Of a stretch of DNA of 52,903 nucleotides, positions 18,004 to 52,903 are shown one piece after another; the first letter of the stretch is position 1; the number at the start of each line of letters is the position of its first letter. The stretch comes from Armatimonadota bacterium (GTDB lineage: Bacteria > Armatimonadota > UBA10988): contig JACRKZ010000156.1 in the NCBI GenBank assembly GCA_016235455.1, forward strand, positions 1 through 52,903, written 5' to 3'. The translations under genes were made by a program, and so were the position numbers. The notes under the pieces are model-generated. The model was not told where the DNA came from. It ran no database searches and was given only the letters and a program-made list of their open reading frames with translations.

Positions 18004-18250
18004 TCACTCCCTGAAAGTAGTCGGCCCGCTGGCTACCGTCGAAAGCGGCCCGAGGTCAGGCAGCACCGGCCGAAAGCGGCGGCCCGACCCGCACGGGCAA
18101 GGGTCGCGGCGGCCGAGCTTCTCGCTCAGTTCTTTGTCGCCATGGACCACGCGCGCACCGCGCATGACGCGTGCTTCGGACGGGAAGCCCTTACGGCGCT
18201 TGCTCATTGGCTCGAAAGCCCAGTTCGTCGTACCGTGGTTGGCGTGACAT
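18004..18250 (-). CDS. Small SEC-C motif (Zn-binding) protein interrupted by four +1 frameshifts at TTTC; 80 aa if recoded
   Basis: AAGGAGGT RBS 5 nt before ATG 18250; [15 protein letters not shown]; the closing CC of the SEC-C motif lies in the +1 frame; length 247 nt = 81 codons + 4. Confidence 0.8.
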
Positions 18251-18297
18251 AGCGCACCTCCTTGGCCGGAGGCTGTATCGCGCCACCGCGGCTGGTG

Positions 18298-19862: not shown

Positions 19863-19929
19863 CGTCTGCCTCACGCCGAGCGCGTTCGTGGTGGGGTCCC
19901 GCGTTCCTTCGTTGTGATACCCTGTCGGC

Positions 19930-32140: not shown

Positions 32141-33286
32141 CTACTGGAAGACCACGCCCTGGGCCAGCGCCTGGATCTCGGCGGCGCGTGCGGTGAGCAG
32201 GTCCACCGGGCCGACGGCGCGGAAGGAGACCATCTTGTCGGCGAAACCCAGCAGATACCACGAGATGGTGCGCTCGGTGTTGCCGCGGCGGTCGATGACT
32301 TCGTAATCGTGGAGCAGGAAGGCGTCGTCCGGCACGGGCAGGCGGCGACTGGCGACGATCTCGATCCACTTGTCGGTCAGCGCATACTTGCGTACGTCGG
32401 CCACGTAGGTCTCGAACGAGCGGCGGCCGAGGCTGCCGGTGACCACTTCGACCACCAGCGGGTCGTCCGCCTTGTCGGGCCGGGCCACGGCGAAGAAGCC
32501 GTCGCGTCGCTCGAAATGCCAGCCCGGCGGCGCCTTGAGCAGCGCGCCCGTGGCGGGGTCGCGCAGTTGTGTACGCGGCGGCGTGGCGGGCAGCAAGGCG
32601 GTCAGCGAGGCGCCCAGGTAGGCGGGCAGTTCCTCCGGCTTGGCCGCGCGGACGACGCTGGTCAGGCCCCAGCGCTCCAGGGTTTGCTGCAGGCGCGTGT
32701 TGCCGTCGAGCCGGTCGGCCTGGCCCACCAACAACACGGCCTTGCCGGGCGTGTTGGCTGCCTGGCCGGGCACGGGCTCAAGGACTTCAGGCACGGCGGC
32801 ATCGACCAGGAGGCAGCCGCCGAAAAGTGTCGGCTGACGCAACAGCATCTGCCAGGCCCAGGCGCCGGCCACATCCCAGCCCGAGCCGGGCTGCTTGGCG
32901 TCGGCGGTGTTCGGCACGCTGGCCAGGATGATGTCGCTGTGGATGGTGGTGTGGCTCTCGAGTGCCTGGTGCACGATGGTGGCGAAGCGCTGCTCGTCGC
33001 CACTGGGCACGGTGATCAGCAGCGCGCCACGCGGGCTGGTCAGGGCGCGCAGCCGGTTGGATTGCGCGGTCATCAGCTCGGCGCGCGGCACCAGAGACAC
33101 GACCACGGGCCATTTGTCGCCGCGCCACAGCGCGTCGGGCTGGTCGACCAGGTAGTCGGTGCCCTCCTTGGGCAGGCCCGGCGTGGCTGGCGCGACGGCC
33201 CACAACGCACCAGCAGCCAACAACGCGAGCCCCAGAACGGGGACTCGGGCGATCGCTGGCCATGGCATCGTTGTCTGTCGCCGCAT
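32141..33286 (-). CDS. Hypothetical exported protein
   Basis: Signal-like N-terminus; coding-like composition; C-terminal part loosely PsbP/DcrB-like (weak). Confidence 0.6.
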   Translation of the reverse strand: MRRQTTMPWPAIARVPVLGLALLAAGALWAVAPATPGLPKEGTDYLVDQPDALWRGDKWPVVVSLVPRAELMTAQSNRLRALTSPRGALLITVPSGDEQRFATIVHQALESHTTIHSDIILASVPNTADAKQPGSGWDVAGAWAWQMLLRQPTLFGGCLLVDAAVPEVLEPVPGQAANTPGKAVLLVGQADRLDGNTRLQQTLERWGLTSVVRAAKPEELPAYLGASLTALLPATPPRTQLRDPATGALLKAPPGWHFERRDGFFAVARPDKADDPLVVEVVTGSLGRRSFETYVADVRKYALTDKWIEIVASRRLPVPDDAFLLHDYEVIDRRGNTERTISWYLLGFADKMVSFRAVGPVDLLTARAAEIQALAQGVVFQ

Positions 33287-37284: not shown

Positions 37285-38121
37285 TCAGAACTCCTGAGGC
37301 AGCGCGGCGATCTGGGCGGCGGTGAACACCGGCCCGTCACAGCAGACGTACGCACCGCCGATGTTGCATCGCCCGCACTTGCCCACGCCGCACTTCATGC
37401 GGTTCTCCAGCGTGGTGATGACCTGCTCGCCGGAAAAGCCCATCTTCTCCAGGCTTATCAGCGAGAACTTGATCATGATCGGCGGGCCGCACAGCACTAC
37501 CTTCGTATTATGGGGCGTGGGCGCGAGCCGTTCGAGCACATGGGGGATCAGGCCCACCTCGCCGTCCCACCCCTCGCTGTCGCCGCCGGGATCGACCGTC
37601 TTGACGCAGCGCACATCCGAGCGCGCCGTCCAGGCGTCGGTCTGGTCGCGGTAGACCAGGTCGGCCGCCGAGCGCGCGCCGTTGAGGATGGTGATGTCGC
37701 CAAACTCGCTCCGCCGGTCGAGGCAGTTGACCAGGATGCTGCGCACCGGCGCCATGCCGATGCCGCCGCCGATGAACACCAGGTTGTGCCCGACCATCTC
37801 GTCGATGGGGAAGCTGTTGCCATAGGGCCCGCGGAAGCCCATGACATCGCCTTCGCTCAGCCGGCGCAAGGCGCTGGTCACCTTGCCGGTGAGCTTGAAG
37901 CTGCACTCGACATAGCCGGTCTCGGTGGGCGAGCTGGCGATGCAGAACACCGACTCGCCTTCGCCAAACGCCGAGTAGAAGGCAAACTGCCCAGCGCGAT
38001 AGGCGAACGAGTCGGCCAGCGCCGGGTCGGTGAACGTCAGCCGCAGCGTGCGCACATCGGCGGTCTCGTCGCGCACCTGCGCCACAGTCATCAGATGGGG
38101 TTCGTAGGTCTCGGTTCGCAT
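37285..38121 (-). CDS. flxA: FlxA / AsrB-like FAD/NAD-binding oxidoreductase with [2Fe-2S]
   Basis: Start MRTETYEPH; GFRGPYGNSF, GGGIGMAP, CGPPIM, LENRMKCGVGKCGRC...C.DGPVF. Confidence 0.85.
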   Translation of the reverse strand: MRTETYEPHLMTVAQVRDETADVRTLRLTFTDPALADSFAYRAGQFAFYSAFGEGESVFCIASSPTETGYVECSFKLTGKVTSALRRLSEGDVMGFRGPYGNSFPIDEMVGHNLVFIGGGIGMAPVRSILVNCLDRRSEFGDITILNGARSAADLVYRDQTDAWTARSDVRCVKTVDPGGDSEGWDGEVGLIPHVLERLAPTPHNTKVVLCGPPIMIKFSLISLEKMGFSGEQVITTLENRMKCGVGKCGRCNIGGAYVCCDGPVFTAAQIAALPQEF

Positions 38122-38126
38122 CGTGC

Positions 38127-39143
38127 TCAGCCTTGGCCGGCGGCGGCGGTCGCCGCCACTTCGAAGATATCCATGCCCGCGGGGCAGGCGTTCACGCAGC
38201 GGCCGCAGCCCACACACATGGGCCGGCCGTGCGCGCGCGGGTAGTAGCTGAACTTGTGCAGCGCCCGCTGCCGGTAACGCGCGGCCTGGTCGGCGCGCGG
38301 GTTGTGGCCCGAGGCGTGCAGCGTGAACAGCCCGAACTGGCAAGCGTCCCAGACGCGCAGCCGTTGGCCGCCGCGCAGGTTGGACTCGTCGACCACGTCG
38401 AAGCAGTGGCATGTCGGGCAGACGAAGGCACAGGTGCCGCATCCCAGGCAGCGGGCTGCGGCATCGGCCCAGGCGGCTTCGCCAAAGGCGGCGGCCAGCC
38501 CGTCGGCCAGCCCGGCGGGCAGCGCGCGCGGCGCCATGGCGGCCTCGGCACGGGCCGTGACCTCAGCCTTGTCGGCCGCGCCGGGCCGCAGGGCCTCGCC
38601 CAGCAGGTCGACCAGCGCGGCGCCACGCGCGGTCAGCACTTCCACCAAGACGCCCTCGGCCAGCGGCGTCAGCAGCAGGTCGCTGCCATCGGTGGCCGTG
38701 GGCGACAGGCCCACCGCGGTACAGGCACAGTGTGCCTGCGGCTGGTCGCACGACAGGCCGACCACCGTGATCCGCGCGCGCCGCGCCAGGTAGGGCGCGT
38801 CCGCCGGCTCCGCGCCGAACACCCCGTCGAGGATGGCCAGGCCGGCCGCATCGCACGGCCGCACGCCGAACAGCACGGTCGGCGCCGGCGGCTCCTCGCC
38901 CGGCAGCAGCTCCACGCCGGGGTTGCCGAAGCGGTAGCCGAACAGCCGTTGGGTGCGCGGGAAAGCCAGCTCCTTGGCCGAGGCGCGGGTCTGGCCGATC
39001 AGTTGTGCCTGCTCCGCCTGTTCGACATGCGCGAAGGCCAGCAGCCCGGCCTGCTCGACCGGCGCGACGACGCGCTGGCCGGCGGCCAGGATGGCGGTCA
39101 GCACGGCCTGCGCCGAGTCCGCGAGGTAGGTCGTCGGGCTCAT
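38127..39143 (-). CDS. flxB: FlxB / AsrA-like 4Fe-4S protein
   Basis: Start MSPTTY (ATGA overlap); GVRPCD, CLGCGTCAFVCPTCHCF, RVWDAC, CVGCGRCVNACP. Confidence 0.85.
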   Translation of the reverse strand: MSPTTYLADSAQAVLTAILAAGQRVVAPVEQAGLLAFAHVEQAEQAQLIGQTRASAKELAFPRTQRLFGYRFGNPGVELLPGEEPPAPTVLFGVRPCDAAGLAILDGVFGAEPADAPYLARRARITVVGLSCDQPQAHCACTAVGLSPTATDGSDLLLTPLAEGVLVEVLTARGAALVDLLGEALRPGAADKAEVTARAEAAMAPRALPAGLADGLAAAFGEAAWADAAARCLGCGTCAFVCPTCHCFDVVDESNLRGGQRLRVWDACQFGLFTLHASGHNPRADQAARYRQRALHKFSYYPRAHGRPMCVGCGRCVNACPAGMDIFEVAATAAAGQG

Positions 39144-40507
39144 CGGATGAACTCCTCGTGGTCTTCGAGCAGGTAGGTGGTCAGCGGCGGCGGCAGGTCG
39201 GGGTCGCCGCCGGCCACGTAGCCGAATTCGTCGCGTACCACCTGCGCCAGCTTGGCGTTGAGCAGGTCGAGCCGGATGTTCGACGGGCAGACCCGGGTGC
39301 ACTCGCCACACCCCACGCAGCGCCCAGCCAGGTGGAAGGCGCGGACCAGGTTCCAGGCCAGATTGCCCCGGCCGTCGCTGCTCTTGGACACCCACTGCGG
39401 GCGGCTCTGGTCGGCGATGCACTGGCTGCAGTAGCACAACGGGCAGACGGCGCGACAGGCGTAGCAGCGCAGGCAGCGGTCGAACTGCGCCTGCCACCAG
39501 GCGCGGCGCTGGGCCGGCGACATCTTCTCCACCCAGGCGATCTCAGCGGCCAGACCCTCACCGTCGACCGGCGTCAGCGGCACTTCGGCCGAGAGCACTT
39601 CGTCCACCAGCGCGGGCCAGGCGCTGTCGCAGGTGTGGCACTTGGGCGCCAGCGCGCCATCGACCTCCACCCCGATGCAGGGCACGCCCAGCAGCGTCAC
39701 CTGCTCGCGCTCGATCTGGCGCTCCTGCAGCAGGCCGACCACGGCGCGTGCGTCGCAGCTCTTGACCAGCAGGCCAACCCGGCCGTGACGCTTGACCAGC
39801 CCGCGGGTCAGGTAGGTGGCCAGGTTGTTGACCGCGTGCTCGTTCCAGACCAACTGGTCGACCTCGTCAGGCGAGGTGATGAACGCTGGCCGCAAGCGGC
39901 CCGGCAGCGAGCCCTGGCCGTAGCCGACGAACACATCGACCCGGCAATCGCTCAGCCAGCGCTGTGCCGTGGCGCGCAACTCGCCCACCACGTCGAGCGG
40001 CTCCGGCACTGGTCGCGGCGGCTCGGACAGGGAGCGCACGGGCAGTTCGCCCGCGCCACCCCAGGTCGGCTGTACCGGGCCCACGCGCAGCAGGCCGGCG
40101 ACCACATCGCTGACCACATCGGCCCATTTGCGGCCTTCGGCGGCCGACACCCACGAGAACTGCAGCCGCTCGGGTTCGATGCCCAGGAACTCGGCCAGCG
40201 CGTGCAGCACCATGAACTTGCGCCGCGCATGGTAGTTGCCCGCCGTGTAGTGGCAGTCGCCGGGATGGCAGCCCGAGACGAGCACGCCATCGGCGCCCTG
40301 CTCGAAGGCGCGGATGATGAAGTGCGGGTCGATGCGGCCCGAGCACGGCAGCCGCACGATGCGCACGTTGGCCGGATACTCGGTGCGGCTGGTGCCAGCC
40401 AGGTCGGCGCCGGTGTAGGTGCACCAGTTGCAGACGAAGGCCACCAGCCGTGGCTTCCAGGTCGCCGTGTCCGGCGCGCTCGGCGTCAAGAGTGTCTCAG
40501 TGCTCAT
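39140..40507 (-). CDS. MvhD/FlxD [2Fe-2S] domain fused to FlxC-like 4Fe-4S domain
   Basis: FVCNWCTYTGADLAG, RLPCSGRIDP, GADGVLVSGCHPGDCHY; then KSCD, CLRCYACRAVCPLCYC..C, HLAGRCVGCGECTRVCP. Confidence 0.88.
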   Translation of the reverse strand: MSTETLLTPSAPDTATWKPRLVAFVCNWCTYTGADLAGTSRTEYPANVRIVRLPCSGRIDPHFIIRAFEQGADGVLVSGCHPGDCHYTAGNYHARRKFMVLHALAEFLGIEPERLQFSWVSAAEGRKWADVVSDVVAGLLRVGPVQPTWGGAGELPVRSLSEPPRPVPEPLDVVGELRATAQRWLSDCRVDVFVGYGQGSLPGRLRPAFITSPDEVDQLVWNEHAVNNLATYLTRGLVKRHGRVGLLVKSCDARAVVGLLQERQIEREQVTLLGVPCIGVEVDGALAPKCHTCDSAWPALVDEVLSAEVPLTPVDGEGLAAEIAWVEKMSPAQRRAWWQAQFDRCLRCYACRAVCPLCYCSQCIADQSRPQWVSKSSDGRGNLAWNLVRAFHLAGRCVGCGECTRVCPSNIRLDLLNAKLAQVVRDEFGYVAGGDPDLPPPLTTYLLEDHEEFIR

Positions 40508-40517
40508 TGGTCATCCA

Positions 40518-42491
40518 TCAAAACGGCGCGAGGGCCCCGATCTCGGCGAACGTCTGCTCGTCGCTGAAGCCCGCCAGATCGATACTGTGGCTGCGGCAGG
40601 TGACCACGCACAGCCCGCAGCCCGCGCACACGCCCTCATTGATATGCGAGACCACGCGCAGCAGGTCGCCGGCGCGGTTGCGCAATTCGCGATGCTCGGG
40701 CGCGTGGAACGGGCAGACGCGCTCACAGTCGAAGCAGGCCACGCAGGTCGCCTCGTTGACCCGCGACACCACGGGCTCGCGTTCGAGCTGGTCGGCGGAG
40801 AACAGCGCCAGCACCTTGGCCGCGCAGCCGCCGGCCTGGGCTACCGTGTCGGGAATGTCGCGCGGCGCCTGGCAGGTGCCGGCCAGGAAGACGCCCGCGG
40901 TGTTGGTTTCCACTGGCCGCAGCTTGGGGTGCGCCTCGCTGGCGAAGCCGAAGGCGTCGTACGGCACGCTGAGCTTCTGGGCCAAGGCATCGCTGCCGGG
41001 GCGCGGAGTGACCGCCGTGGCCAGCACCACCAGGTCCGCGCGGATGGTCAGCGCCGTGCCACTGAGCGTGTCGGCGCCGCGCACCACGAGCTGGTCGCCG
41101 TCGCGGTAGATGCGCGAGACCCGGCCGCGCAGATACTGGGCGCCCTCCTCGGCGATGACGCGGTGCACGAACGCGTCGTAGTTCTTGCCGGCGGCGCGGA
41201 TGTCCATGTAGAACACGTACGCCTGGCCGTCATGCACCTTGTGTTTGTACAGTAGCGCGTGCTTGGCCGTGTACATGCAGCAGATGCTCGAGCAGTAAGG
41301 CACACCGCGCGCCGGATCGCGCGAGCCGGCGCAGGCCACGAACACCACGCTCCGCGGCACCTCGCCGTTCGATGGCCGCCGCGGCTCACCGGCCGTGGGC
41401 CCCGAGGCACTCAGCAGTCGCTCGAACTGCAGCCCGTTGATGATGTCCGGGTCACTGCCATACTCCGGATAGAGCGTCGGCGGCTGCACATCGAAGCCGG
41501 TGGCCATGACGATGGCGCCGACCTCCTCGGTGACCAGCGTGTCCGTCTGCTCGTAGTCAATGCATCCCGCTGGGCAGGCCTTGGCGCACAGACCGCACTT
41601 GCCTTTGAGGAACATCGTGCAGCGCGTGCGGTCGATGACCGGCAGGTTGGGCACGGCCTGGGCAAACGGGATGAAGATGGCCGGCCGCTGGCCCATGCCC
41701 GCGTCGAACTCACTGGCGATCTTCTTCTGCGGGCAACGCTGGGTGCAGGCGCCGCAGCCGGTGCACTTGGACTCGTCCACCGAACGGGCCCGGCGGCGAA
41801 TGGTCACCGTGAAGTTGCCCACGTAGCCGTCGACGGCTTCCACTTCGGCGTAGGTGTAGAGCTGGATGCGCGGGTGGTTCTTCACCTCCACCATGCGCGG
41901 GGTCATGATGCACTGCGAGCAATCGAGCGTGGGGAAGGTCTCGGAGAGCTGCGCCATGTGGCCGCCGATGGACGGTTCGCGCTCCACGAGCACCACGTCG
42001 CGCCCGGCGTTGGCGATGTCCAGCGCGGCCTGAATGCCGGCGATGCCGCCGCCGATGACCAGCGCGCGCTTGGTCATCGGCACGCGAATCGGCGCGAGCG
42101 GCTGGTTGCGCTTCACCTTCTCTACCATGATCGCGATCAGCTCAAGCGCTTTAGACGTAGCTTCTTCGCGATCCGAGTGGACCCAGGAGCAGTGCTCGCG
42201 CAGGTTGGCCATCTCGCACAGGTAGCGGTTGAGCCCGGCGCCTTCCACGGCGTTCTGGAAGGTGTTTTCGTGCATGTGCGGGCTGCACGCGGCGACCACG
42301 ATGCCGGTCAAGCCCTGCGCGACGATGGCCTCGCGGATCTTGCGCTGGCCGGGGTCCGAGCACATGTAGCGATAGGATTCGGCGTGCGCCACGCCGGGGA
42401 TCTGCGCCGCGGCCTCGGCCACGCGGTCCACGTCCACGTTACGGGCGATGTTCTCGCCGCAATGACAGATGAAGACTCCGATGCGTGCCAT
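40518..42491 (-). CDS. hdrA: Heterodisulfide reductase subunit A
   Basis: RIGVFICHCGENIA, MCSDPGQ, AACSP, ANLREHCSWVH, GGGIAG, TFPTLDCSQC, CAGSRD...CSSICCMY; ferredoxin motifs. Confidence 0.95.
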   Translation of the reverse strand: MARIGVFICHCGENIARNVDVDRVAEAAAQIPGVAHAESYRYMCSDPGQRKIREAIVAQGLTGIVVAACSPHMHENTFQNAVEGAGLNRYLCEMANLREHCSWVHSDREEATSKALELIAIMVEKVKRNQPLAPIRVPMTKRALVIGGGIAGIQAALDIANAGRDVVLVEREPSIGGHMAQLSETFPTLDCSQCIMTPRMVEVKNHPRIQLYTYAEVEAVDGYVGNFTVTIRRRARSVDESKCTGCGACTQRCPQKKIASEFDAGMGQRPAIFIPFAQAVPNLPVIDRTRCTMFLKGKCGLCAKACPAGCIDYEQTDTLVTEEVGAIVMATGFDVQPPTLYPEYGSDPDIINGLQFERLLSASGPTAGEPRRPSNGEVPRSVVFVACAGSRDPARGVPYCSSICCMYTAKHALLYKHKVHDGQAYVFYMDIRAAGKNYDAFVHRVIAEEGAQYLRGRVSRIYRDGDQLVVRGADTLSGTALTIRADLVVLATAVTPRPGSDALAQKLSVPYDAFGFASEAHPKLRPVETNTAGVFLAGTCQAPRDIPDTVAQAGGCAAKVLALFSADQLEREPVVSRVNEATCVACFDCERVCPFHAPEHRELRNRAGDLLRVVSHINEGVCAGCGLCVVTCRSHSIDLAGFSDEQTFAEIGALAPF

Positions 42492-43360
42492 CAGCTCAAC
42501 CACCCAGCCAGCGTGGGCCGGCTATCCACAAACGACTTGTCCAGACCCAGCTCGTCCGCGCCGGCGCCCAGCGCCAGGCCCACGAGTTGGGTGAAATAGA
42601 CCGCGGGCAGGTCGTAGCGGTGACCGGTCTGAGCGGTCACGTCGGTCTGCCGCACGTCCAGGTTGGCCTGGCACAGCGGGCAGGCCACGGCCACGACATC
42701 CGCGCCGGCGCGCTTGGCCTGGTCCAGCAGCCGATCGACCAGGCTGACCACGATGTCGCTGCGCGACAGGCTGAGGTTGGCCCCGCAGCACTCGGTCTTG
42801 CCCGGCCAGTCCACGGTCTCGGCGCCGCAGGCGGCCAGCACGCGATCCATGCTGGTCGGGTGTTCGGCGTCGTCGAAGGCCATGACCTCGGGTGGGCGCA
42901 CCAGCAGGCAGCCGTAGTAGCAGGCCACCTTGAGGCCGGTCAGCGGCCGGCGCACTCGGGCGGCCAACGCGTCGAGCCCGTAGGTGTCGAGCAGCAGTTC
43001 CAGCAGGTGGTCGACACGCACATCCAACGGCGCGGGTGCTTCCAGCACGTGCTCGACGCGGCCGCGCAGCACCTCGTCGTGGGCCATCTCGTGCCGCGCG
43101 CTGCGCAGGCGGTTGAAGCAGGCCGCGCAAGCCACCACCAGGCTGTCACGCTGCTGGTCGGAGGCAAGCCGCAGATTCTGGGCGCTCAGCGCCACGGAGA
43201 GCAGCGCGCTGGTGTTGTGGGCCGGGGTGGAGCCGCAGCAGGTCCAGCCCTCGAGCTCCGTCAGGTCCAGGCCCAGCCGTTGGCACACGGCGTGAGCCGA
43301 CTGGGCGTAGTCGTTGCCGGTCCCGTGCAACGAGCAGCCCGGATAGAAAGCGACGCTCAC
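42491..43360 (-). CDS. hdrB: Heterodisulfide reductase subunit B
   Basis: FYPGCSL, WTCCG, CAACF, YYGCLLVRP, KTECCGA, CPLCQANLD (two CCG domains). Confidence 0.93.
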   Translation of the reverse strand: MSVAFYPGCSLHGTGNDYAQSAHAVCQRLGLDLTELEGWTCCGSTPAHNTSALLSVALSAQNLRLASDQQRDSLVVACAACFNRLRSARHEMAHDEVLRGRVEHVLEAPAPLDVRVDHLLELLLDTYGLDALAARVRRPLTGLKVACYYGCLLVRPPEVMAFDDAEHPTSMDRVLAACGAETVDWPGKTECCGANLSLSRSDIVVSLVDRLLDQAKRAGADVVAVACPLCQANLDVRQTDVTAQTGHRYDLPAVYFTQLVGLALGAGADELGLDKSFVDSRPTLAGWLS

Positions 43361-43929
43361 GTCTCCGATCCCTCCAGCTCCTGCACCCGCTCGAAGATAC
43401 GGCGCACGGCGGGAAGGTTGGCACTGCGTTGGGGCAGCAGGTGAAGCTTGCCCTTGCGCATCATTGACGGCCCCTTGGTCACGTCGCGCAGCGGCCGGCG
43501 GCTGGCCAGGTTGAAGCCGGCCACCAGGCTCATCTCATGCACACGGCCAAAGGCACGGATCTGGGCCAGGAACAGCCGGTTGAGCAAGGCCGCGCCGCGA
43601 TTGTCGCGGGCGTAGCCGTCCTGCTCGGCCACGGCCCGCAGCGCATCCATGACGCGCGGCAGACGACAGGCTTGCGGACATCGGCTGACACAGGTTTCGC
43701 ACGAGGCGCACAGCCAGATGGCCTCGTCGCGCAGCACGCGTTCCCGGGCGCCCAGTTGCACCAGGCGCATGACCCGCGCGGGATCGGTGTCCATCTCGCT
43801 GGCCACCGGGCAGCCGGCCGTGCACTTGCCGCATTGGTAGCAGCTCGACACAGTCTGGCCCGACAGGTGCTCTATCCGGGCGCGAAAGGCTAAGGCAGCC
43901 TCCGACGCAATATCACTCGCTGTTGGCAC
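43357..43929 (-). CDS. hdrC: Heterodisulfide reductase subunit C
   Basis: GTG start after GGAGGA; CYQCGKCTAGCP and WLCASCETCVSRCP. Confidence 0.92.
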   Translation of the reverse strand: MPTASDIASEAALAFRARIEHLSGQTVSSCYQCGKCTAGCPVASEMDTDPARVMRLVQLGARERVLRDEAIWLCASCETCVSRCPQACRLPRVMDALRAVAEQDGYARDNRGAALLNRLFLAQIRAFGRVHEMSLVAGFNLASRRPLRDVTKGPSMMRKGKLHLLPQRSANLPAVRRIFERVQELEGSET

Positions 43930-44118
43930 GGCACTCCTCCGTCCACGACACGGCAGAGCGGCCAGATGAACCGCCCACAGCACCCACGAGCGTGGGCCCT
44001 GCTTTGCTGGTGAGCGCCTCAGGCGAGTCGACGCCACCATCCCCCGGAGGCATCATACACCTAGTCCCGTTTTCGGCAACACCTGAGCCGGAGGTTTCGC
44101 TTCGCGGGGATCTAACGC

Positions 44119-44730: not shown

Positions 44731-45294
44731 TCAGGCCAGGATGTGGTCGAGCACGATCTTGGCGCCGATACCGATCAGGACCAGCCCGCCGAGCAACTCC
44801 ATGCGGCGGCCGAACCGCTCGCCCAGCCGACTGCCCAGCCGCATGCCGAGCATGGTCAAGGTGGCCGTGGTGACGCCGATGATCGCGCTGGGGTACCAGA
44901 TGTCGACCTTCAGCATGGCGAACGTGAAGCCGATGGCCAGCGCGTCGATGCTGGTCGCCACGGACAGCATGACCATGCGCGCGCCCTTCGTCGGGTCATG
45001 GGCCAGCGGTTCGTCCTCATCGCGCTCCAGCGCCTCGCGGATGGCCTTGATGCCCAACAGCGTCAGCAGCGCGAAGGCGATCCAATGGTCCCAGCTGACC
45101 ACATAGTGGCCGACCCAGCGGCCCAGCGACCAGCCGATGACCGGCATCATGGCCTGGAACAGCCCGAAATGGAACGACAGCCGGAAGACCTGCCGCGGAT
45201 GCAGCTTGCCCAACGCCACACTGGCGCTCACCGCGACGGCGAAGGCGTCCATGGACAGGCCCACGGCGATAGCGAACAACTGCGCGAAGCTCAT
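44731..45294 (-). CDS. mntP: Manganese efflux pump MntP
   Basis: GLSMDAFAV, FGLFQAMMP, DHWIAF, ATSIDALAIG, ELLGGLVLIGIG. Confidence 0.92.
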   Translation of the reverse strand: MSFAQLFAIAVGLSMDAFAVAVSASVALGKLHPRQVFRLSFHFGLFQAMMPVIGWSLGRWVGHYVVSWDHWIAFALLTLLGIKAIREALERDEDEPLAHDPTKGARMVMLSVATSIDALAIGFTFAMLKVDIWYPSAIIGVTTATLTMLGMRLGSRLGERFGRRMELLGGLVLIGIGAKIVLDHILA

Positions 45295-46343
45295 CCGGCG
45301 AACCCCTTGGCCAGCCTGGCCAGTGCGGCGATCCAGTCGGGCCGCAAGTCATACAGTCGGCGGTTCTCACGCGTGGGATGCACGCGATTGGTCAGTAGCG
45401 CCACCACCAGTTCACGCTCGGGGCTGGCCCAGGCCAGCGTGCCGGTGAACCCATCGTGGCCGAACGCGCGCGCATCGCCCGACTCATAGCCCAGCCGCTT
45501 GAGCCCCAGCCAGAAGGCGGCGCCGCTCACATCGGCGCGCGGCGTGAACACCTCGGCCCACAACGGCGCCGAGAGCAGCTTGCGCTGCATCATGGCCAGC
45601 AAGGCCTGGCCCGCGGCCGGCGCCGTGGCGAACAGCCCGGCATGGCCGGCCACGCCGCCACACGCCGCCGCGTTCTCGTCATGCACCTCGCCGCGCACCA
45701 GCGCGCCGCGCCAGGCGCAGACCTCGGTGGCTGCCGTGGTCTCGGGTGCCAGCGGCCCATAGACCAACTGGCCTGCCAGACCTAACGGCTTTAGAACACG
45801 CTCTTGAAGGAAGATGTCCTGGCGCTGCCCGCTTGCCGCCTCGACCGCGAAGCCGAGCAGCATGAAGCCCAGATCAGAGTACTCGCAGGCGGTGCCCGGC
45901 GGCCGGACGAGGTCGCTGGCCAGCAGCGCGGCCTTGATCGTCTCGCGGTCGCGGCCGAGCCGGTAGAACAGCCTGAACGGTGGCAGCCCGGCCTGATGGG
46001 TCAGCAGCCAGCGCGGCGTGAGGTGCGCCAGCCGCCGGTCATGCTCGAACAGCGCGGGCACGGCCTGGCCCAGCGGCTGGTCGAGACACAGCTTGCCGTC
46101 ATCGACCAGCGCCAGCACGCACCACGTGGTGGACAGCGCCTTGGTAAGCGAAGCCAAGTCGAAGACTTGGCTTCGCGACAGGGGCTCGGGCGCGGGCAGC
46201 GTGGTGGCCAGGCCCCATGTCTCGTCGAGCACCACCTGCCCGCGATGCCAGACCCAGCACTGGGCGCCGGGAGCTGCTCCCGTTGCCAAGCCGCTGGTGA
46301 CTGTGCGCCACCACTGGGAATAGGGTCCGTCGCCGTGTGCCAC
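45291..46343 (-). CDS. Serine hydrolase, beta-lactamase (class C-like) family
   Basis: FDLASLTK (SxxK), LLTHQAGL, YSDLGF, GEVHDENA, GHAGLF, FGHDGFTG. Confidence 0.9.
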   Translation of the reverse strand: MAHGDGPYSQWWRTVTSGLATGAAPGAQCWVWHRGQVVLDETWGLATTLPAPEPLSRSQVFDLASLTKALSTTWCVLALVDDGKLCLDQPLGQAVPALFEHDRRLAHLTPRWLLTHQAGLPPFRLFYRLGRDRETIKAALLASDLVRPPGTACEYSDLGFMLLGFAVEAASGQRQDIFLQERVLKPLGLAGQLVYGPLAPETTAATEVCAWRGALVRGEVHDENAAACGGVAGHAGLFATAPAAGQALLAMMQRKLLSAPLWAEVFTPRADVSGAAFWLGLKRLGYESGDARAFGHDGFTGTLAWASPERELVVALLTNRVHPTRENRRLYDLRPDWIAALARLAKGFAG

Positions 46344-46403: not shown

Positions 46404-47717
46404 CTACCCCTGCTTCTGTCTGGCAGCCCAATCGATGTAGTACACAGACCGACGGCTCAGATAGGCGAACCACTGGCCGTTGCCGGACCACGTTACGCAC
46501 GGGCGTGCCACCACGTCGCGCATCTTGCGCCGGAACGTCACGTTGTTCAGTTCACAGTCAGCTCGGAGGAGCTGACCACTGTTGGGTTCTGTGCACCATG
46601 TGGCCCAGGTAGGTTTCCTTTCGATGCCGGCCGTGGGGTCTGGCGCGGGCGCCATCGGGTCGTGGCCAGTCTCGACCTTGGCCTCGATGAGCAGGTCCAG
46701 CGTCTCTGGTACCTGCTGGCCGGAGAACAGCAACAACTGCCATACGGTGGCCGCCGCGCCGCCGCTGGTCACACGCCGCTTGGTCCAGCAAGCTATGTTC
46801 CCGCCTGCGGGATGGGCAGCCGGCTGCGCGAAGGTGAGTGTCTCCTGAATGGGTCCTTCGTCCCCCGTGACTTTGCCGTCGAACCATGGCTCCACGATGA
46901 GTTGACGCCACGCCGACGCATCGGTGGCCGGTGCACCGCGACGCAGTTCGAGCCAGTAGATCCCCGTGTTCGGGCATGGATCGTCTTTGGAGAGATCGTC
47001 GAGCCGGCCCAGCCAAAGGCGCCAGCCGTCCGGCATCTTGTCGACACCCAAGTCGCGCCAGCGGCCGGGCGAGGTCACCTTTGGCGTCGGCACTGTGGCC
47101 AGGCGTGTGCTGTTGCCGTCCAGAAGCGCTACATTGTCATCTGCAACCTCGAGGAAGAGCACATCGCCGAGCAATCGATGGTTGGCATCACACATCGGCT
47201 CAATGCGATGGTCGTAGGAGGTGCCGCCGGTGCGACCGATACCGCGCTCCAAGCGGATCAGGGGCGCATCTGGTGCGAGTTGGCGCGGTGCCTCATAGGG
47301 GAAGATCAAGGCCTCCGTCCCGTTCAGGCGAACGCGGTGGGGCGGCATCGGTAGCGGAGCGTCAAAGTAGGCCGACCACAAGTGCTGGCCGACGAAGATG
47401 CCCTGCCGTTGGCCCCATGAACGGATCAGGTAGGTGAGCGGCTGCCCAGGCGGAGTGTAGGGCTTCACGCCAAGCTCGATGATCTGCCGCTCAACGCCAT
47501 CGCCAGGGCACAGGGCAACGATGGCCGGCTCGTTCGGCACCATGTCGCCCCCGAAGACGGGCTTCATCTTGCGTTTGGTGTAGCCCTCGGCGATCTCGCG
47601 GCCGGCGGCCTGCGCGCGAGTGGCCAGCTCGGCAACGAACTTGCAGTCCTTGGGCGGGGCAGCCCAGCCTGTGCTCACCGTCAGAGCCGCCGCCAACCAC
47701 CATCGTAGACGTTGCAT
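46404..47717 (-). CDS. Hypothetical exported protein, possible beta-propeller; candidate immunity/accessory protein
   Basis: Signal MQRLRWWLAAALTVSTGWA; Trp-rich; C-terminal P..TWSGNGQWFAY resembles a TolB/PD40 blade; atypical codon usage. Confidence 0.6.
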   Translation of the reverse strand: MQRLRWWLAAALTVSTGWAAPPKDCKFVAELATRAQAAGREIAEGYTKRKMKPVFGGDMVPNEPAIVALCPGDGVERQIIELGVKPYTPPGQPLTYLIRSWGQRQGIFVGQHLWSAYFDAPLPMPPHRVRLNGTEALIFPYEAPRQLAPDAPLIRLERGIGRTGGTSYDHRIEPMCDANHRLLGDVLFLEVADDNVALLDGNSTRLATVPTPKVTSPGRWRDLGVDKMPDGWRLWLGRLDDLSKDDPCPNTGIYWLELRRGAPATDASAWRQLIVEPWFDGKVTGDEGPIQETLTFAQPAAHPAGGNIACWTKRRVTSGGAAATVWQLLLFSGQQVPETLDLLIEAKVETGHDPMAPAPDPTAGIERKPTWATWCTEPNSGQLLRADCELNNVTFRRKMRDVVARPCVTWSGNGQWFAYLSRRSVYYIDWAARQKQG

Positions 47718-47732
47718 AGCCTGCCTTCCCTT

Positions 47733-49151
47733 CTACTTGCCGTGCTCGGCCCACGCCGCAGACAGGTTGGCCAGTTGCAGCCTTCCGTCCACGAAGTAGA
47801 GCAACTCACGCTCGGCCGTGGCCGCCAGCGCTTTCAACTGCGCACTCTCCTCCGTTCCCGTGTCTTCCCGGTCGGTCGGCCACGCCGTCTCCAGCGCTCG
47901 ACCGTCGGCGTCGGGCGACCACAGGTAGTAGGTCGGGTACTCGGCCCACGGCTCCATCTCGCCACCCTCCATGTGCGTGCCCGTGATCTTGCCTTTGTAC
48001 GTGGCCCGCCAATCTACCAGTTGCCGAACGCCGTCGCGCCAGTCGACGACCAAGGCTTGCACCATGATCTCCTCGTCGAACGGCCCATCGTCACGCACAG
48101 ACGCTGCCGGCTTCTCGCCCACCATGGCTGCTCGGCCTCGCCAGGTGTAGGCCAGGCCGGCGCCATCGGCCAGAAGCACGCCGTGCCTGGTCTCGGCGCC
48201 GAGCACTGCGGGCGGGCCAACTTCGGCCACCGGCCGCGGCTCGGACGGGATGACCTTGACCGCCGCCGGTCGCACCGTGCCTGGCGCGGTCGGAGTCAGC
48301 GTGAACACCGTCACGTTGCCAAAACGGTCTGCTGGCGCATCGCCCCGGTCGGCGTCGACGGCTTCGTCGGTCAGGCCACCGGCAGCGGACACTGCCACCA
48401 CGAACTTCTCCCCCAGTCGCGTGACAGGTTCGAGGAAGCCACCACCAAACTGATCGCTGGGCTCAGCGCGCATGCCTTGCGGCAGGCGCGCCACGGCCAC
48501 CTCTCTGCCAACGCAATCATAGATGCGGACATGGCCCTTCAGGCGCACATCGGCCGTCGCGCCAGTTTCGTCGGCCGTGTAGTCGCGGAATCGTGCGGTA
48601 TAGACCTGACGCAGTGGTTCAGTCGCCGGCCCAGCGACACCCAGGGGCACGCACAGCCCGTCGCGCCACATGCAGCCGCGCAGGTCCTTGCGATCCCATC
48701 TGGCCTGAGCCATGAGCCAGCCGGAGGGCGTGGATCTCCAGACGAACGTACCCTCGTCATCGAACTGCTCGGGTGGCACGCGCAGTTTCTGCACCTTGAT
48801 CGACCCAGTGTCCCACCGCAACCAGTGGAACCACTCACTCTCTTCGGTGTAGAACAGCGCCTGCTTGGCACCGCCGACGGCGCCGGGTTGGCTGCATCGC
48901 CCAGGTCGGAAGAGAGTTGATCGCTGGCCGGTCAAAGGCAGGCGGCTGTCGATGCCGCGCAACCAGGCCTGCCAAGCGTGCAGCAAGGGCTTGGAGCTCG
49001 GTGCTTTGGCCAAGCCAGCCACGGGTGGAGGCGGCGGGCCAACGGGCTCGACATCACCCACCTTGCCCACCACGGGACCGACGGCCAAGCCGGCCAACAA
49101 GGCAAAGACCGTTTGCCTTAGCAGAGCAGAGACAGACTCATGGCGTGTCAT
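47733..49151 (-). CDS. Hypothetical exported protein; candidate immunity/accessory protein
   Basis: Hydrophobic N-terminal signal followed by a Pro-rich linker; 472-aa ORF; atypical codon usage. Confidence 0.6.
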   Translation of the reverse strand: MTRHESVSALLRQTVFALLAGLAVGPVVGKVGDVEPVGPPPPPVAGLAKAPSSKPLLHAWQAWLRGIDSRLPLTGQRSTLFRPGRCSQPGAVGGAKQALFYTEESEWFHWLRWDTGSIKVQKLRVPPEQFDDEGTFVWRSTPSGWLMAQARWDRKDLRGCMWRDGLCVPLGVAGPATEPLRQVYTARFRDYTADETGATADVRLKGHVRIYDCVGREVAVARLPQGMRAEPSDQFGGGFLEPVTRLGEKFVVAVSAAGGLTDEAVDADRGDAPADRFGNVTVFTLTPTAPGTVRPAAVKVIPSEPRPVAEVGPPAVLGAETRHGVLLADGAGLAYTWRGRAAMVGEKPAASVRDDGPFDEEIMVQALVVDWRDGVRQLVDWRATYKGKITGTHMEGGEMEPWAEYPTYYLWSPDADGRALETAWPTDREDTGTEESAQLKALAATAERELLYFVDGRLQLANLSAAWAEHGK

Positions 49152-49233
49152 TGGATTCCCTCTAGTCGACAGCCGGAGAGGACCTGCCGCCGGTGCGGCG
49201 ACGCCAGGCCCCCTCCCGTGCTGCTGCTCCCCG

Positions 49234-52032
49234 CTAGTCCTTGTCGGGCACCCTGTAGCTCCGGTAGATCACGGGCTTGTTCTGGCCTGCGTAGTAGGGA
49301 CTAGTGCCCAACACGTAGTCAGGACCTGGATTGCCCGTCACGTACAGCGGAAGCGGTCCTTGGCCGCTCTTGTACTCGTTCATCCGCTGCTTGACGCGGT
49401 CGAGCCACCCGGACTCGCCCCAACCGCCCTTGTCCTGGTGGTCGCCGTAGCCCATGAACCAGAGGAACTTACCGGGGTCTTGGATGCCGATGCAGCCTTG
49501 CGTCCCACGATGACCGGAATCGAAGTGGACGCGCAGGATGTGGCGCCAGTCCGCCGCCGTCGCATTGGCACCGCACGTACCGTTGTCATTGTAGTCGGCG
49601 AGTTCGTGATGGTCGTCGCCACCGGCTTCGTTCTTGATCATCTTCCGGTCGTAGTTCCAACGGTTGCTGCCCGGGGCTTTGAAGTCCATGCCGGTCTTCC
49701 CAGGCGGCTTGTCGTTGTTGGGGTGCCCTTGCATCAAAGCGCCCAGGTGGTACGGGTACTTCCACGTTCCGTCTGCATGGTTCCGGTTCTCGTACACGGT
49801 CTTGGAGCCCGGGGTTGGCCCGTTGCCGTTTTCGCCCGTCCATTGCTGTGCGGGATCATTGGTGTTCATTCTGGCCCCTTGGCCGCTCCAGTAGGCCATG
49901 GGCGAGTCCTGATGCCACTCACCTCCAGGTATCTGAGTCCATCCAGAGGCCTGGTGCTCCATCTTGCGCTGGACCAGATAGAGGTGGCTGGCCTCGGTGC
50001 TGCTGCCAGAGTGCTGGGCCCATAGATAGACGTCGTACCTACGCTCGGTCTTGTTCTTGTTGCGCGGCAGCATCGGCTTTGGTTGCCGCGACCGATTGGT
50101 TGCCGCGTGGGTATCCTTGGACTGGATCACGAAGATGCAGCGCTTGCCTTCCTCGGACTCCTCGCCGTCACTGTACTTGATTTCGACGGCATCGTCGCCG
50201 CTCTTCTCAATGCCATCGAACGGCCCGAACACCTTCAGGGTTCCGTCGATGCCGTAGTGGAACCGCACCCACGTCGACGCCGGAAGGGGCGTCTCCGTGA
50301 GCCGGTAGCTCAAGAGGAAGTACAGGGCTGGGGCCTGGCCATCATCTTCTCTGCCGTCTTCGTCGCTAAGCGGGTCGGTGCCCTCATCCTCTGTGGAGCC
50401 TTCGGCTCCCGTCGGCACCGCTTCGCCGATGTTGGACAGCCCGAGGTTAGCCCAGTCAACATGCAGCGCGCCGGACCGGTACGTTGCCATATCGTAGTCA
50501 GCGTACTGAACCAGTTGGATCTCGAACGTATACATCCCTTCGTCCGGCAAGACCAGAGCAGGTTGGTACTGCGCGTCATAGCCGTTCACCAGCCCGTCCC
50601 ACGTCACACTGGCGGTGGTGCCGGTGAATGTCGTGGTCAAGGTGCGGACGGGAGTCGAATCGTCCGTCCGGTTGGTCGGGAAGATGCGGACCTCCGCGTT
50701 GATCGGCTGACTGGTGTCGTTGTCGGCCACAGTGAAGCCGATGGACACGTCCCCGGTGTGGTTCGCGCTACGCGGGAAGTAGTCGTCGCAGGTCACACCA
50801 GTGACGACAAGGTTGACCAGGTCCACGGCTACCGTGGCTGTCGCCGTGCCGTCGTGCGCCGCATCAACCGGCTTCTCGCCCATGTGGATGGGATCGCCCC
50901 AGGGGTTGCTGATCACGGCGCAGACCTTGATGTCCGTCGGCCCGTTGCGCCACTGGCAGTTCGAGTCACCATTGCCATAGCCAGCAGACATCCACTGGTA
51001 CGTGACCTCCTGGGTCATCGTCACCCAGTTCTCATCGTAGGTGGTCTGACCGTACTGCCACCCCGACAGGCCGTCGCCGTCGTACAGGAGGACCGACCGT
51101 TGCGCGTCGGCATCCCAGGTCCACATGGTCAGGTGCATCAGGTCGCAGGCGCCGGGCTGGGTCTTGATGCGTAGCTTGATCGGCACGTTGCCACCAGTCG
51201 TCGCGCCGGCCTCGGGTGTCAGGAACTGCAGAGAGACACCCGGTTCGAGCCGTGTCAAGGCGACCTCTACCGTGGTTTCCGAGCCGTTCTCAACGCTGGC
51301 GGTCGCCTCCACGTATCCGCGATAGCCCGTACCGTACTTGGCCGGCGCGCTGACCCGGACCTTGTAGCTCCCGCCGTAGACGTAGCTGAAGGTCGCGTTG
51401 CCATCGGAGTCGGTCTGCACGCCCGAGCCGATGCTGTAGGTGCCGTCGGCGTTCATCAGCGTCACATACAAGCCGGCAACGGGGGCCGGCGCGTTCTCCG
51501 CGCCCGTATCCACCACATGCACCGCCACACTGCCCGGCGTGCTCGTCGGCGGAGGAGGAGGAGGTGGTGGCGGCGGAGGAGGAGGTGGCGGTGGAGGTGG
51601 CGGCGTGCCATCGCCCACGCTCACGCTGAACTGCGTGCTGCCCGTGCCGGTGCCCAGGCCTTCGGCGGTGACCACGGCCTGCACGGTGAAGCGGTAGTTA
51701 CCGGCGGTGCCAAAGCACATGCTCAGGCTGGCGTAGTTGGTGCCCGTGCTCTGCACGCTGACCCCGCCCGCGGTGACCCAGTTCTCACCGTCCTGCCGCT
51801 CGCAGGCGGTGACCGACCACTCGGCCGTGGAGTTCGTCATGGTCTGGGTCTGCGGGTAGGCACTCACGTAGCCAGTGTAGGTCTGCCCGGTGACGTACGG
51901 CCCGTAGCCCGGATAGCCGTAGACCGACACTCCGAAATCATCCGCCCAGGCCGGCGCGCCCAGCGCACCGACGAGCAGACTCAGCAACCCCACCAGGTGG
52001 ATATACCCCCCCCCCGGTGTCCCAATGAACAT
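49234..52032 (-). CDS. Large secreted multidomain protein: Ig-like domains, poly-Pro linker, C-terminal L,D-transpeptidase/Tlde1-like domain
   Basis: Signal ...LVGLLSLLVGALGAPAWA; TDSDGNATF..V.GG.Y.V.VSAP (carboxypeptidase-regulatory-like); VRTL...VTWDG...EG.YTF (FlgD Ig-like); C-terminal RVHFDSGHRGTQGCIGI. Confidence 0.75.
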   Translation of the reverse strand: MFIGTPGGGYIHLVGLLSLLVGALGAPAWADDFGVSVYGYPGYGPYVTGQTYTGYVSAYPQTQTMTNSTAEWSVTACERQDGENWVTAGGVSVQSTGTNYASLSMCFGTAGNYRFTVQAVVTAEGLGTGTGSTQFSVSVGDGTPPPPPPPPPPPPPPPPPPPTSTPGSVAVHVVDTGAENAPAPVAGLYVTLMNADGTYSIGSGVQTDSDGNATFSYVYGGSYKVRVSAPAKYGTGYRGYVEATASVENGSETTVEVALTRLEPGVSLQFLTPEAGATTGGNVPIKLRIKTQPGACDLMHLTMWTWDADAQRSVLLYDGDGLSGWQYGQTTYDENWVTMTQEVTYQWMSAGYGNGDSNCQWRNGPTDIKVCAVISNPWGDPIHMGEKPVDAAHDGTATATVAVDLVNLVVTGVTCDDYFPRSANHTGDVSIGFTVADNDTSQPINAEVRIFPTNRTDDSTPVRTLTTTFTGTTASVTWDGLVNGYDAQYQPALVLPDEGMYTFEIQLVQYADYDMATYRSGALHVDWANLGLSNIGEAVPTGAEGSTEDEGTDPLSDEDGREDDGQAPALYFLLSYRLTETPLPASTWVRFHYGIDGTLKVFGPFDGIEKSGDDAVEIKYSDGEESEEGKRCIFVIQSKDTHAATNRSRQPKPMLPRNKNKTERRYDVYLWAQHSGSSTEASHLYLVQRKMEHQASGWTQIPGGEWHQDSPMAYWSGQGARMNTNDPAQQWTGENGNGPTPGSKTVYENRNHADGTWKYPYHLGALMQGHPNNDKPPGKTGMDFKAPGSNRWNYDRKMIKNEAGGDDHHELADYNDNGTCGANATAADWRHILRVHFDSGHRGTQGCIGIQDPGKFLWFMGYGDHQDKGGWGESGWLDRVKQRMNEYKSGQGPLPLYVTGNPGPDYVLGTSPYYAGQNKPVIYRSYRVPDKD
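51547..51603 (-). repeat. Trinucleotide (CCN)19 run encoding 19 consecutive prolines
   Basis: Counted directly from the sequence. Confidence 0.95.
52006..52015 (-). repeat. G10 homopolymer in the 5' coding region of the large secreted gene
   Basis: C10 on the plus strand; no comparable run noticed elsewhere in the window. Confidence 0.95.
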
Positions 52033-52249
52033 CTCATGGGATCACTCCCCTTGCACCAGCCGAGTCGGCGTCGCCAACTCGGGTACGACCCGTCCGCCGC
52101 GCTGACCCACAACGTCCCGCGGCGGCCACCGGCACAAGCCTGCATGATGCGCCAGCGGCTTGTCAAGTGAACTTGGGTTCTCTATGCAACAGAGGCGCAA
52201 CGCAGGCGTCAGTGGTACGCAGTAGGGGCGTGTATTAGCGACTGGAAGC

Positions 52250-52903
52250 CTAACCCACCCCATCCAACCGCAACAGCGCTGCCACCACCGCCCGCGTCGC
52301 CAGCGCCACGTTCTCGATATCCACGCCGGCGAAGTCGTCGCGTTCGTCGTGGTACCAGCGGTGGGCATAGGGCCAGGAGCCCAGGCACTTGATGGCGTGG
52401 CGGTAGCCGGCGTTGATGAACATGCCGTCGTCGTCGTTGGGCCGCTCGGCGGTGGCCACCGAGGTGGCCAAGGGCAGGCCGAAGTCGGCGACGACCTGAG
52501 TGATCAGTTCGGCGAACGGGCGGCCTTCGTCGTGGGTGTAGACGCTGACGTTGGTGCGGCGGCCGGCGGCGTGGTCGGCTTCGCTACGGCCGCCGAGGCT
52601 GTCGATGTTGAAGATCGCGTCGAGCTGCTCGCCCCGCTCGGCCGCGGCCAGCGCGGCGGGGTAGCTGGTCCAGGGCGTATGCTCCTCGTTGCACCACAGC
52701 AGCCACAGGCTATGGTCGAGCGGCACCGCGGCCAGGACGCGGGCGATCTCGAGCAGGGCCACCGTGCCCACGCCGTTGTCATAGGCGCCGGGGCAGTCGA
52801 CCCAGCTCTGGGAATCCTTGTGGGCGATGAGCACCAGCGAGCGCTCGGGGCAGCGGTGGCCGGGCCGGCGGAGCGACAGGTTGTCCGCGTCGTACCACGG
52901 GTC
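52250..52903 (-). CDS. M28-family metallopeptidase (5'-truncated by the window edge)
   Basis: LIAHKDS, PGAYDNGVG, NEEH, FNIDSLG, YHDERD zinc-ligand motifs. Confidence 0.85.
   Translation of the reverse strand, partial: DPWYDADNLSLRRPGHRCPERSLVLIAHKDSQSWVDCPGAYDNGVGTVALLEIARVLAAVPLDHSLWLLWCNEEHTPWTSYPAALAAAERGEQLDAIFNIDSLGGRSEADHAAGRRTNVSVYTHDEGRPFAELITQVVADFGLPLATSVATAERPNDDDGMFINAGYRHAIKCLGSWPYAHRWYHDERDDFAGVDIENVALATRAVVAALLRLDGVG

Follow-up and report, generated by a model that had tools for sequence, protein, structure and literature searches.

A three-gene cluster for exported proteins

The stretch of DNA analyzed here, called the window below, comprises positions 1 to 52,903 (its full length in nucleotides [nt]) of contig JACRKZ010000156.1 from an Armatimonadota bacterium (assembly GCA_016235455.1). 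Between the genes for an M28 peptidase and a beta-lactamase-family hydrolase, it carries three co-oriented minus-strand genes that code for proteins of 932, 472, and 437 amino acids (aa), each defined as an open reading frame (ORF) with its translation:

49234 to 52032, minus strand: gene 1, 932-aa exported modular protein (P0001), with a coding-like G+C pattern and homology to the relative P0005
47733 to 49151, minus strand: gene 2, 472-aa protein
46404 to 47717, minus strand: gene 3, 437-aa protein

The three genes form a genuine accessory cluster whose products are exported. An earlier reading made from the letters of the DNA (the sequence-only reading) had proposed that the cluster encodes a polymorphic toxin with its immunity genes, the toxin being an exported protein with an immunoglobulin (Ig)-like stalk and an L,D-transpeptidase- or Tlde1-like enzyme at its tip. 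The C-terminal domain of the first protein is the main subject of what follows.

In all three genes, the G+C content is highest at third codon positions (GC3), lower at first positions (GC1), and lowest at second positions (GC2), the pattern of coding sequence in a window of 68% G+C. Long ORFs overlap them on the plus strand; in these, GC1 exceeds GC3, and the translations are rich in Arg and poor in Lys and Tyr. The genes are closely spaced, with 82 nt between the first and the second and 15 nt from the stop of the 472-aa gene to the start of the 437-aa gene, and a purine-rich stretch lies ahead of each ATG. Upstream, 217 nt lie between the cluster and the M28 peptidase gene.

The C-terminal domain founds a very rare family

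The last 288 aa of the 932-aa protein, here called the tip, contain the best-conserved block of the family:

49237 to 50100, minus strand (residues 645 to 932): basic C-terminal domain (P0002), founding member of a very rare, unclassified family
49483 to 49527, minus strand (residues 836 to 850): candidate active site H-F-D-S-G-H-R-G-T-Q-G-C-I-G-I, from the translation, with putative base His836 and putative nucleophile Cys847
49393 to 50949, minus strand (residues 362 to 880): stretch conserved with P0005 by BLASTP, covering the last stalk module, the acidic linker, the pre-domain, and the tip

An exhaustive phmmer search among 1,835,955,588 representative proteins returned three relatives of the tip at E <= 0.001, namely P0003 (255 aa, E = 6.6e-16), P0004 (242 aa, E = 9e-10), and P0005 (622 aa, E = 2.9e-04). 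Judged by these sequence comparisons, the tip is a real family and a very rare one, and part of that rarity may reflect poor sampling of the lineage. The best-conserved block has the consensus [LI]-R-x-H-x(5-13)-T-x-G-C-I-G. It holds the one invariant Cys of the family, and the 15-residue span of highest family identity is exactly the motif listed above. Residues invariant in all four members (alignment A1, P0001 numbering) include D806, H808, R830, R834, H836, T844, G846, C847, I848, G849, D878, and R879. The spacing from His to Cys varies, being 11 in P0001, 17 in P0003, 10 in P0004, and 9 in P0005.

P0005 is homologous to P0001 over residues 362 to 880 (BLASTP, 30% identity in 553 columns, pairwise E = 3e-47), and therefore everything from the last stalk module to the tip, including the acidic linker and the pre-domain, travels together. 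The start Met residues of P0003 and P0004 correspond in the alignment to Met654 and Met712 inside P0001. Both are probably ORF calls cut short and not stand-alone domains, so the usual architecture of the family is probably the long, stalked form. Between stalk and tip, a junction of the form Q-P-K-x-[ML]-L-P-R-N is kept at residues ~649 to 657 of the 932-aa protein (the 50071-50088 region) and at residues ~300 to 309 of P0005; it may mark either the border between two domains or a site of processing.

Other searches brought no further members. No match was found by tblastn with the tip against phages or with P0003 against plasmids. The tblastn search of plasmids with the tip listed 30 records, none below E = 2, which we regard as chance; the matches from Bacillus lie within the S8-peptidase region of a 787-aa protein that lacks the Gly-Cys motif. 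Word-index searches with the whole 932-aa protein and with residues 165 to 660 returned no matches, but these are insensitive, since with a candidate list of at most about 8000 they also missed the query itself and P0005. A scan of a genome collection with residues 171 to 932 produced 332 pattern matches, of which none was confirmed.

Possible likeness of the tip to L,D-transpeptidases and Tlde1

The conserved block fits the catalytic pattern of L,D-transpeptidases (LDTs) and Tlde1 toxins. Passages of PMC9638812 give the motif of LDTs and Tlde1a as His...(S/T)-H-G-C-hydrophobic, with H121, H129, and C131 as the residues of Tlde1a; the same passages, and others in bioRxiv 10.1101/2020.02.18.954545, describe the His-Cys distance of DUF2778 as shorter than that of YkuD. 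The tip reads H836...T844-Q-G-C847-I, and its His, Thr, Gly, Cys, and Ile are invariant in the four members. The short, DUF2778-like distance is found in three of the four, at 9 to 11 residues. When look-alikes were ranked with a protein language model, the top place went to a cluster that carries the name "putative YkuD domain-containing protein" (score 0.93, with 173 of 256 features), and a PF10908 Tlde1_dom cluster came 11th (0.89). The best local alignments of hhalign and hmmsearch land on the S-x-G-C of the E. coli Ldts, although without significance. We set aside clan CD, sortase, NlpC/P60, CE-clan, and 3C-like proteases, whose residue order or spacing, to our knowledge, does not fit.

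A number of results weigh against this identification. Pfam, including PF03734, PF13645, and PF10908, gave no family at E <= 10 for any of the four members or for three sub-fragments of the tip, though above about E 0.1 matches may be lost to the filters of HMMER; NCBIfam gave no match for the tip. A PDB profile search returned no LDT or Tlde1a chain at E <= 10, only chance matches to uS12 at E 0.3 to 1, and a PDB sequence search with the tip likewise returned no LDT or Tlde1a chain. With thin profiles of four sequences each, hhalign of A1 against E. coli LdtB, LdtC, LdtD, and DpaA gave a probability of 0.1, and core against core gave 0.22 over 18 motif columns. Scores of hmmsearch --max with an E. 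coli YkuD model stayed below 0 bits. Within the motif itself, the His before Gly-Cys (H129 of Tlde1a) is replaced by Q, D, D, or E in the family, and the Arg that follows Cys-Ile/Val in LdtB, LdtC, and LdtD, though not in DpaA, is Gly in the tip. The look-alike recognition, 2178, lies under the tool's 2300 mark and is thus weak evidence, and the same short motif may drive the score. The loose pattern H-x(6,17)-[ST]-x-G-C-[IVLMF] occurs at 14 sites in 5142 ORFs of at least 90 aa (1,071,490 residues), so that about 0.004 are expected per 288 aa; this is rare but not negligible for a scan of many motifs.

In structure prediction, AlphaFold2 reached a mean predicted local distance difference test (pLDDT) score of only 31.8 for A1, with the window tip first, and 32.9 for A3, with P0003 first. 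Foldseek with the 31.8 model against the PDB gave no match at E <= 0.001, only matches at E >= 1.2, which are meaningless at such a pLDDT.

Taking these results together, we put the probability that the tip is an L,D-peptidase at about one half. Its likeliest identity would be a highly divergent branch of the LDT (YkuD/Tlde1) superfamily. The sequence-only reading had called the tip LDT/Tlde1-like; the invariant motif and the YkuD and Tlde1_dom look-alikes lend this partial support, whereas Pfam, NCBIfam, PDB profiles, and hhalign lend none.

Comparison with characterized systems locates the likenesses and differences. With the type VI L,D-carboxypeptidase/transpeptidase effectors Tlde1a and DUF2778 (PF10908), the tip shares a His followed by [S/T]-x-G-C-hydrophobic, at a His-Cys distance of 10 in Tlde1a, going by the parts of the published account cited above, and of 9, 10, and 11 in three of the four members here, as well as the look-alike cluster at 0.89. 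Unlike that family, it has no HMM match to PF10908 (0 of 4 members at E <= 10), and Q, D, or E stands for the S-H-G-C histidine. Moreover, Tlde1a is a 173-aa stand-alone cargo effector, whereas the 288-aa tip ends a 932-aa Sec-exported protein with its own leader. There are no type VI secretion system (T6SS), Rhs, or PAAR families in that protein or in the 29 other window ORFs scanned, and the adjoining genes code for 472 and 437 aa rather than for a DUF2195-type immunity protein of 138 aa. Housekeeping YkuD LDTs such as M. tuberculosis LdtMt2 and E. coli LdtB, LdtC, and LdtD resemble the 932-aa protein in export or anchoring, beta-sandwich modules, a Cys/His domain, and a C-terminal tail, with the motif [S/T]-x-G-C-[IV]. 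They differ in that hhalign (probability 0.1 to 0.2) and hmmsearch (below 0 bits) do not recognize the tip, in its shorter His-Cys distance and its Gly for Arg after Cys-Ile, in a stalk that here is much longer and has a poly-proline rod and an acidic linker, and in abundance, LDTs being ubiquitous and the tip family extremely rare. E. coli DpaA (YafK), a YkuD-like amidase, also has S-x-G-C at a very short His-Cys distance (8), but it is a small periplasmic single-domain protein without detectable similarity to the tip beyond the motif. Polymorphic toxins of the Rhs, CdiA, and MafB kinds share the general plan of a large exported protein with a candidate enzyme at its extreme C terminus, past a conserved junction, and co-oriented genes next to it; the cluster lacks a known trafficking or pre-toxin domain, evidence of tip exchange, and a small immunity gene.

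Anatomy of the 932-aa protein

Ahead of the tip, the protein is a leader followed by a series of modules:

51943 to 52032, minus strand (residues 1 to 30): signal-peptide-like leader with a hydrophobic core, A-W-A before D31, no lipobox Cys, and no Lys or Arg, read by eye
Residues 31 to 140: beta-rich acidic module, from sequence reading
51547 to 51603, minus strand (residues 144 to 162): run of 19 prolines, a rigid linker after the first beta-rich module, from sequence reading
51253 to 51540, minus strand (residues 165 to 260): prealbumin/Ig-like beta-sandwich module, below threshold only, from Pfam
Residues 263 to 530: further acidic modules, from sequence reading
50338 to 50442, minus strand (residues 531 to 565): acidic linker of net charge -11, from residue composition
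Residues 566 to 644: small module, from sequence reading

Ig-like modules, as previously proposed for the stalk, are weakly backed by sub-threshold Pfam matches at residues 165 to 260 (CarboxypepD_reg, E = 4e-06, 27.5 bits against a cut-off of 32.3; SdrD_B, 7.1e-05; Ig_DR_A0283-like, 9.9e-05); elsewhere in the 932-aa protein, Pfam gave no module match. The acidic patch noticed earlier corresponds to the linker at residues 531 to 565. The C-terminal region, described as basic and rich in G, N, and K, is so indeed: the last 288 aa have an isoelectric point of 8.84 and contain 37 G, 20 N, and 17 K. It had also been said to end in the motif. The motif does lie in the C-terminal domain, but 82 residues separate it from the C terminus, and its outer coordinate is 49527; the 49534 given earlier is 7 nt too far.

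The proline run is encoded by imperfect 9- to 12-nt GGN direct repeats (plus strand, 51548 to 51605), and the length of the tract could change by slippage.

The two downstream genes

Signal peptides, which the sequence-only reading had assigned to all three proteins, were judged here by eye, without a predictor. The 932- and 437-aa proteins have cleavable-looking leaders, whereas the 472-aa protein looks membrane anchored: a hydrophobic segment at its N terminus precedes a proline run, and the body of the protein is rich in Trp. This protein had no match in Pfam, NCBIfam, PADLOC, PHROGs, or PDB, and a single word-index search for homologues returned only itself, which makes it an ORFan. The 437-aa protein has a weak Pfam match to PD40 (E = 0.082), and the clusters that the language model returned for it are of the PD40 kind (0.94, 165 shared features, recognition 1748). 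As a lead only, it may be a PD40/TolB-type beta-propeller. Neither PADLOC nor PHROGs yielded families, the two downstream proteins are not similar to each other, and no paralogues of the three proteins were found within the window. A complex prediction for the tip (A1) with residues 55 to 472 of the 472-aa protein scored 0.00 without controls, which speaks neither for nor against pairing.

Composition and surroundings of the cluster

The flanking genes are those named in the earlier reading, and Pfam bears out both:

52250 to 52903, minus strand: upstream flank, M28 peptidase, cut by the window end (Peptidase_M28, E = 6.6e-17; GC3 0.93)
45291 to 46343, minus strand: downstream flank, beta-lactamase-family serine hydrolase without a leader (Pfam, E = 1.1e-52; GC3 0.86)

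The best NCBIfam match of the hydrolase is PBP4B, far under its cut-off. As had been noticed, the three genes use more A/T at third positions than their neighbors. GC3 is 0.82 in the 932-aa gene and 0.78 in each of the other two, compared to 0.86 to 0.94 in most neighbors (the two flanks above, MntP at 0.94, DUF1257 at 0.91, and HdrB/HdrA-like at 0.90). This offset is real but modest because 7 of the 36 ORFs called in the window, 3 of them the cluster genes, have GC3 <= 0.82.

A 17-bp GC-rich hairpin without a U tract (49175 to 49216, minus strand) occupies much of the 82-nt spacer after the 932-aa gene. The RNA of the 101 nt from 49140 to 49240 folds with a minimum free energy of -46.4 kcal/mol (z = -2.2); as stable a fold was reached by 3 of 200 shuffled sequences. 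The hairpin may be a transcript-stabilizing or attenuating element, and one can envision that it may set different expression levels for gene 1 and for the two genes downstream. At the locus, there were no sigma-70-like promoter matches, and the three terminator-like matches equal the shuffle expectation. Rfam gave no family anywhere in the window. No island-boundary repeats were found around the cluster, and no integrase, transposase, secretion-system gene, or tRNA lies nearby, with families scanned in 29 other window ORFs.

The wider window and its lineage

Elsewhere in the window, a second pair of exported unknowns is formed by adjacent ORFs of 802 and 381 aa (29713 to 32121 and 32141 to 33286, minus strand), which have leader-like N termini and matched no Pfam family at E <= 0.001. 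A cluster of HdrC/HdrB/HdrA-like genes occupies 37285 to 44040 (minus strand) and also encodes an MvhD/FlpD-ferredoxin fusion and an FAD/NAD oxidoreductase. A carbohydrate-degradation stretch (54 to 19955) holds apiosidase-like, alpha-L-fucosidase, rhamnosidase (with an F5/8 type C domain), and GH42-like genes, and within it are a GFO/IDH/MocA oxidoreductase with a twin-arginine translocation (TAT) leader, a quinol NO reductase (4968 to 7280), and a 1399-aa PAS/GAF hybrid histidine kinase (8964 to 13163). Glycoside hydrolases are numerous in the window, and its housekeeping genes are GrpE, MnmA, and DAHP synthase.

A search for HdrA in 185,579 species genomes confirmed 600 of 601 stretches, from which we retained the best 80 loci. 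Among these 80, the top identity to the window HdrA was 66%, and none encodes a relative of any cluster gene, of the hydrolase, or of the M28 peptidase (tblastn, 0 of 80). A FastTree phylogeny of HdrA used 76 of the 80 loci and the window, leaving out four whose best high-scoring segment pair held a stop or was shorter than 550 aa. The window HdrA sits on a long branch (0.37) beside one Actinomycetes metagenome-assembled genome, with a Shimodaira-Hasegawa-like support of 96. Given this branch and the lack of any relative above 66% identity among the best 80 loci, the lineage is poorly sampled.

What the cluster may encode

The reading that we favor, tentatively and at a little less than an even chance, is that of an accessory exported module in which the tip would be a divergent L,D-peptidase-like domain acting on peptidoglycan stems, with the producer's own wall and those of rivals both possible as targets. 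Coding signal, gene order, and the tight 82- and 15-nt spacing support it. A rare family, lower GC3, and ORFan neighbors are more in keeping with a fast-evolving accessory module than with a housekeeping one.

The alternatives differ in how much of this they give up. The tip may be no L,D-peptidase at all. It could have another fold, as a cysteine hydrolase of some other kind or as a domain for binding or adhesion whose Cys is structural, and the likeness of the motif would then be coincidence. We regard this as a substantial possibility, if well short of even. Every alignment-based test was negative, the domain (~290 aa, with 190 residues ahead of the His) is roughly twice the size of a YkuD core, and two positions differ, the His before Gly-Cys that is catalytic in Tlde1a and the Arg after Cys-Ile/Val of the E. 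coli LDTs; the invariant polar residues D806, H808, D878, and R879 could form another site. Coincidence is harder to reconcile with the position of the lone invariant Cys, which stands in the most conserved block, in the exact [S/T]-x-G-C-hydrophobic context, and after a strand-like hydrophobic-R-hydrophobic-H segment, or with a look-alike search that points to YkuD and Tlde1_dom, though the same short motif may drive it. Another explanation keeps the enzyme but makes it the producer's own, for wall remodeling or anchoring in the manner of LdtMt2, with the Ig-like modules positioning an LDT-like domain in the producer's peptidoglycan or the tip tethering the stalk covalently to the wall. In LdtMt2, as described in part of PMC3605043, a membrane anchor is followed by tandem Ig-like domains, the catalytic domain, and a tail at the C terminus, a layout that the 932-aa protein recalls. 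The stalk end and the tip are co-conserved, the flanks are a peptidase and a PBP4B/AmpH-like hydrolase, and no delivery apparatus lies nearby. We nonetheless consider a housekeeping role of this kind unlikely: Pfam readily recognizes housekeeping LDTs but not this tip, the family is extremely rare, GC3 is unlike that of the flanking genes, and the leader looks cleavable rather than like an anchor. Five or six modules and a 19-proline rod also seem long for a periplasm.

The proposal of the sequence-only reading, in which the stalk displays or releases a Tlde1-like tip that kills neighboring cells and one or both downstream exported proteins serve as periplasmic immunity, appears to us just as improbable as the producer's own wall enzyme. 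It is consistent with the C-terminal place of the candidate enzyme, after the boundary kept in P0001 and P0005, with a His-Cys spacing that resembles the toxin clade DUF2778, and with extreme rarity and lower GC3, as expected of accessory or conflict genes. Sections of bioRxiv 10.1101/2020.02.18.954545 describe a Sec-exported Tlde1 immunity protein, which the exported downstream genes recall. With reference to Zhang et al. 2012, they also report polymorphic toxins that carry L,D-peptidase tips. The Ig-like stalk is by itself no argument for a toxin because the same arrangement ahead of an LDT domain is known from the housekeeping LdtMt2 (passages of PMC3605043). The earlier remark that no Rhs, VgrG, PAAR, or CdiA family is present stands, and it extends to FHA, LXG, and other trafficking families: none was matched in the 932-aa protein at E <= 1. 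Nor did the 29 other window ORFs scanned hold a secretion-system, integrase, or transposase family, and island-boundary repeats were not found. The one relative that retains stalk sequence, P0005, has the same tip, so tip swapping was not seen. The downstream proteins, at 472 and 437 aa, are far larger than the 138 aa given for Tldi1 in the sections of that preprint; they match no immunity or defense family, and the 472-aa protein has no relative in the single word-index search. The enzyme assignment on which the proposal builds is itself unproven. The designation of a polymorphic toxin locus is thus not supported. Slightly less probable again is a more specific version, in which a stalk-mounted, Sec-exported L,D-peptidase from an unseen YkuD/Tlde1 branch would be a new class of antibacterial weapon, contact-independent or surface-displayed, that works without T6SS, contact-dependent inhibition (CDI), or Rhs and is countered by large exported immunity proteins, one a membrane-anchored ORFan and the other a beta-propeller.

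For an accessory module with an L,D-peptidase-like tip, we infer fold, chemistry, substrate, and export route as follows. The product of gene 1 (~900 aa) would be exported by Sec and would consist of beta-rich modules, the 19-proline rod, more beta-rich modules, the acidic linker, and the basic 288-aa tip, with the stalk holding the tip away from the membrane or cell surface. By analogy with the superfamily, we imagine that His836 would activate Cys847, which would attack the bond between meso-diaminopimelate 3 and D-Ala 4 (mDAP3-D-Ala4) of a peptidoglycan tetrapeptide stem. The acyl-enzyme would then be resolved by water, as in a carboxypeptidase, or by an amine, for exchange or cross-linking. 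The membrane-anchored 472-aa protein and the propeller-like 437-aa protein are probably coexpressed partners.

Implications

What the cluster means depends on the nature of the tip. Were the motif coincidental, the locus would hold a rare surface protein and two ORFan neighbors, ordinary in a poorly sampled lineage. As a toxin, it would represent a mode of delivery for Tlde1-like enzymes that is independent of the type VI system. Most likely, the first protein carries a new and very rare Cys/His domain that is best read as a divergent L,D-peptidase. If it is one, the superfamily would gain a branch missed by every current profile, with the enzyme borne on a long exported stalk, and the finding would bear on wall attack and remodeling outside the Proteobacteria and on the number of cell wall enzymes that annotation misses.

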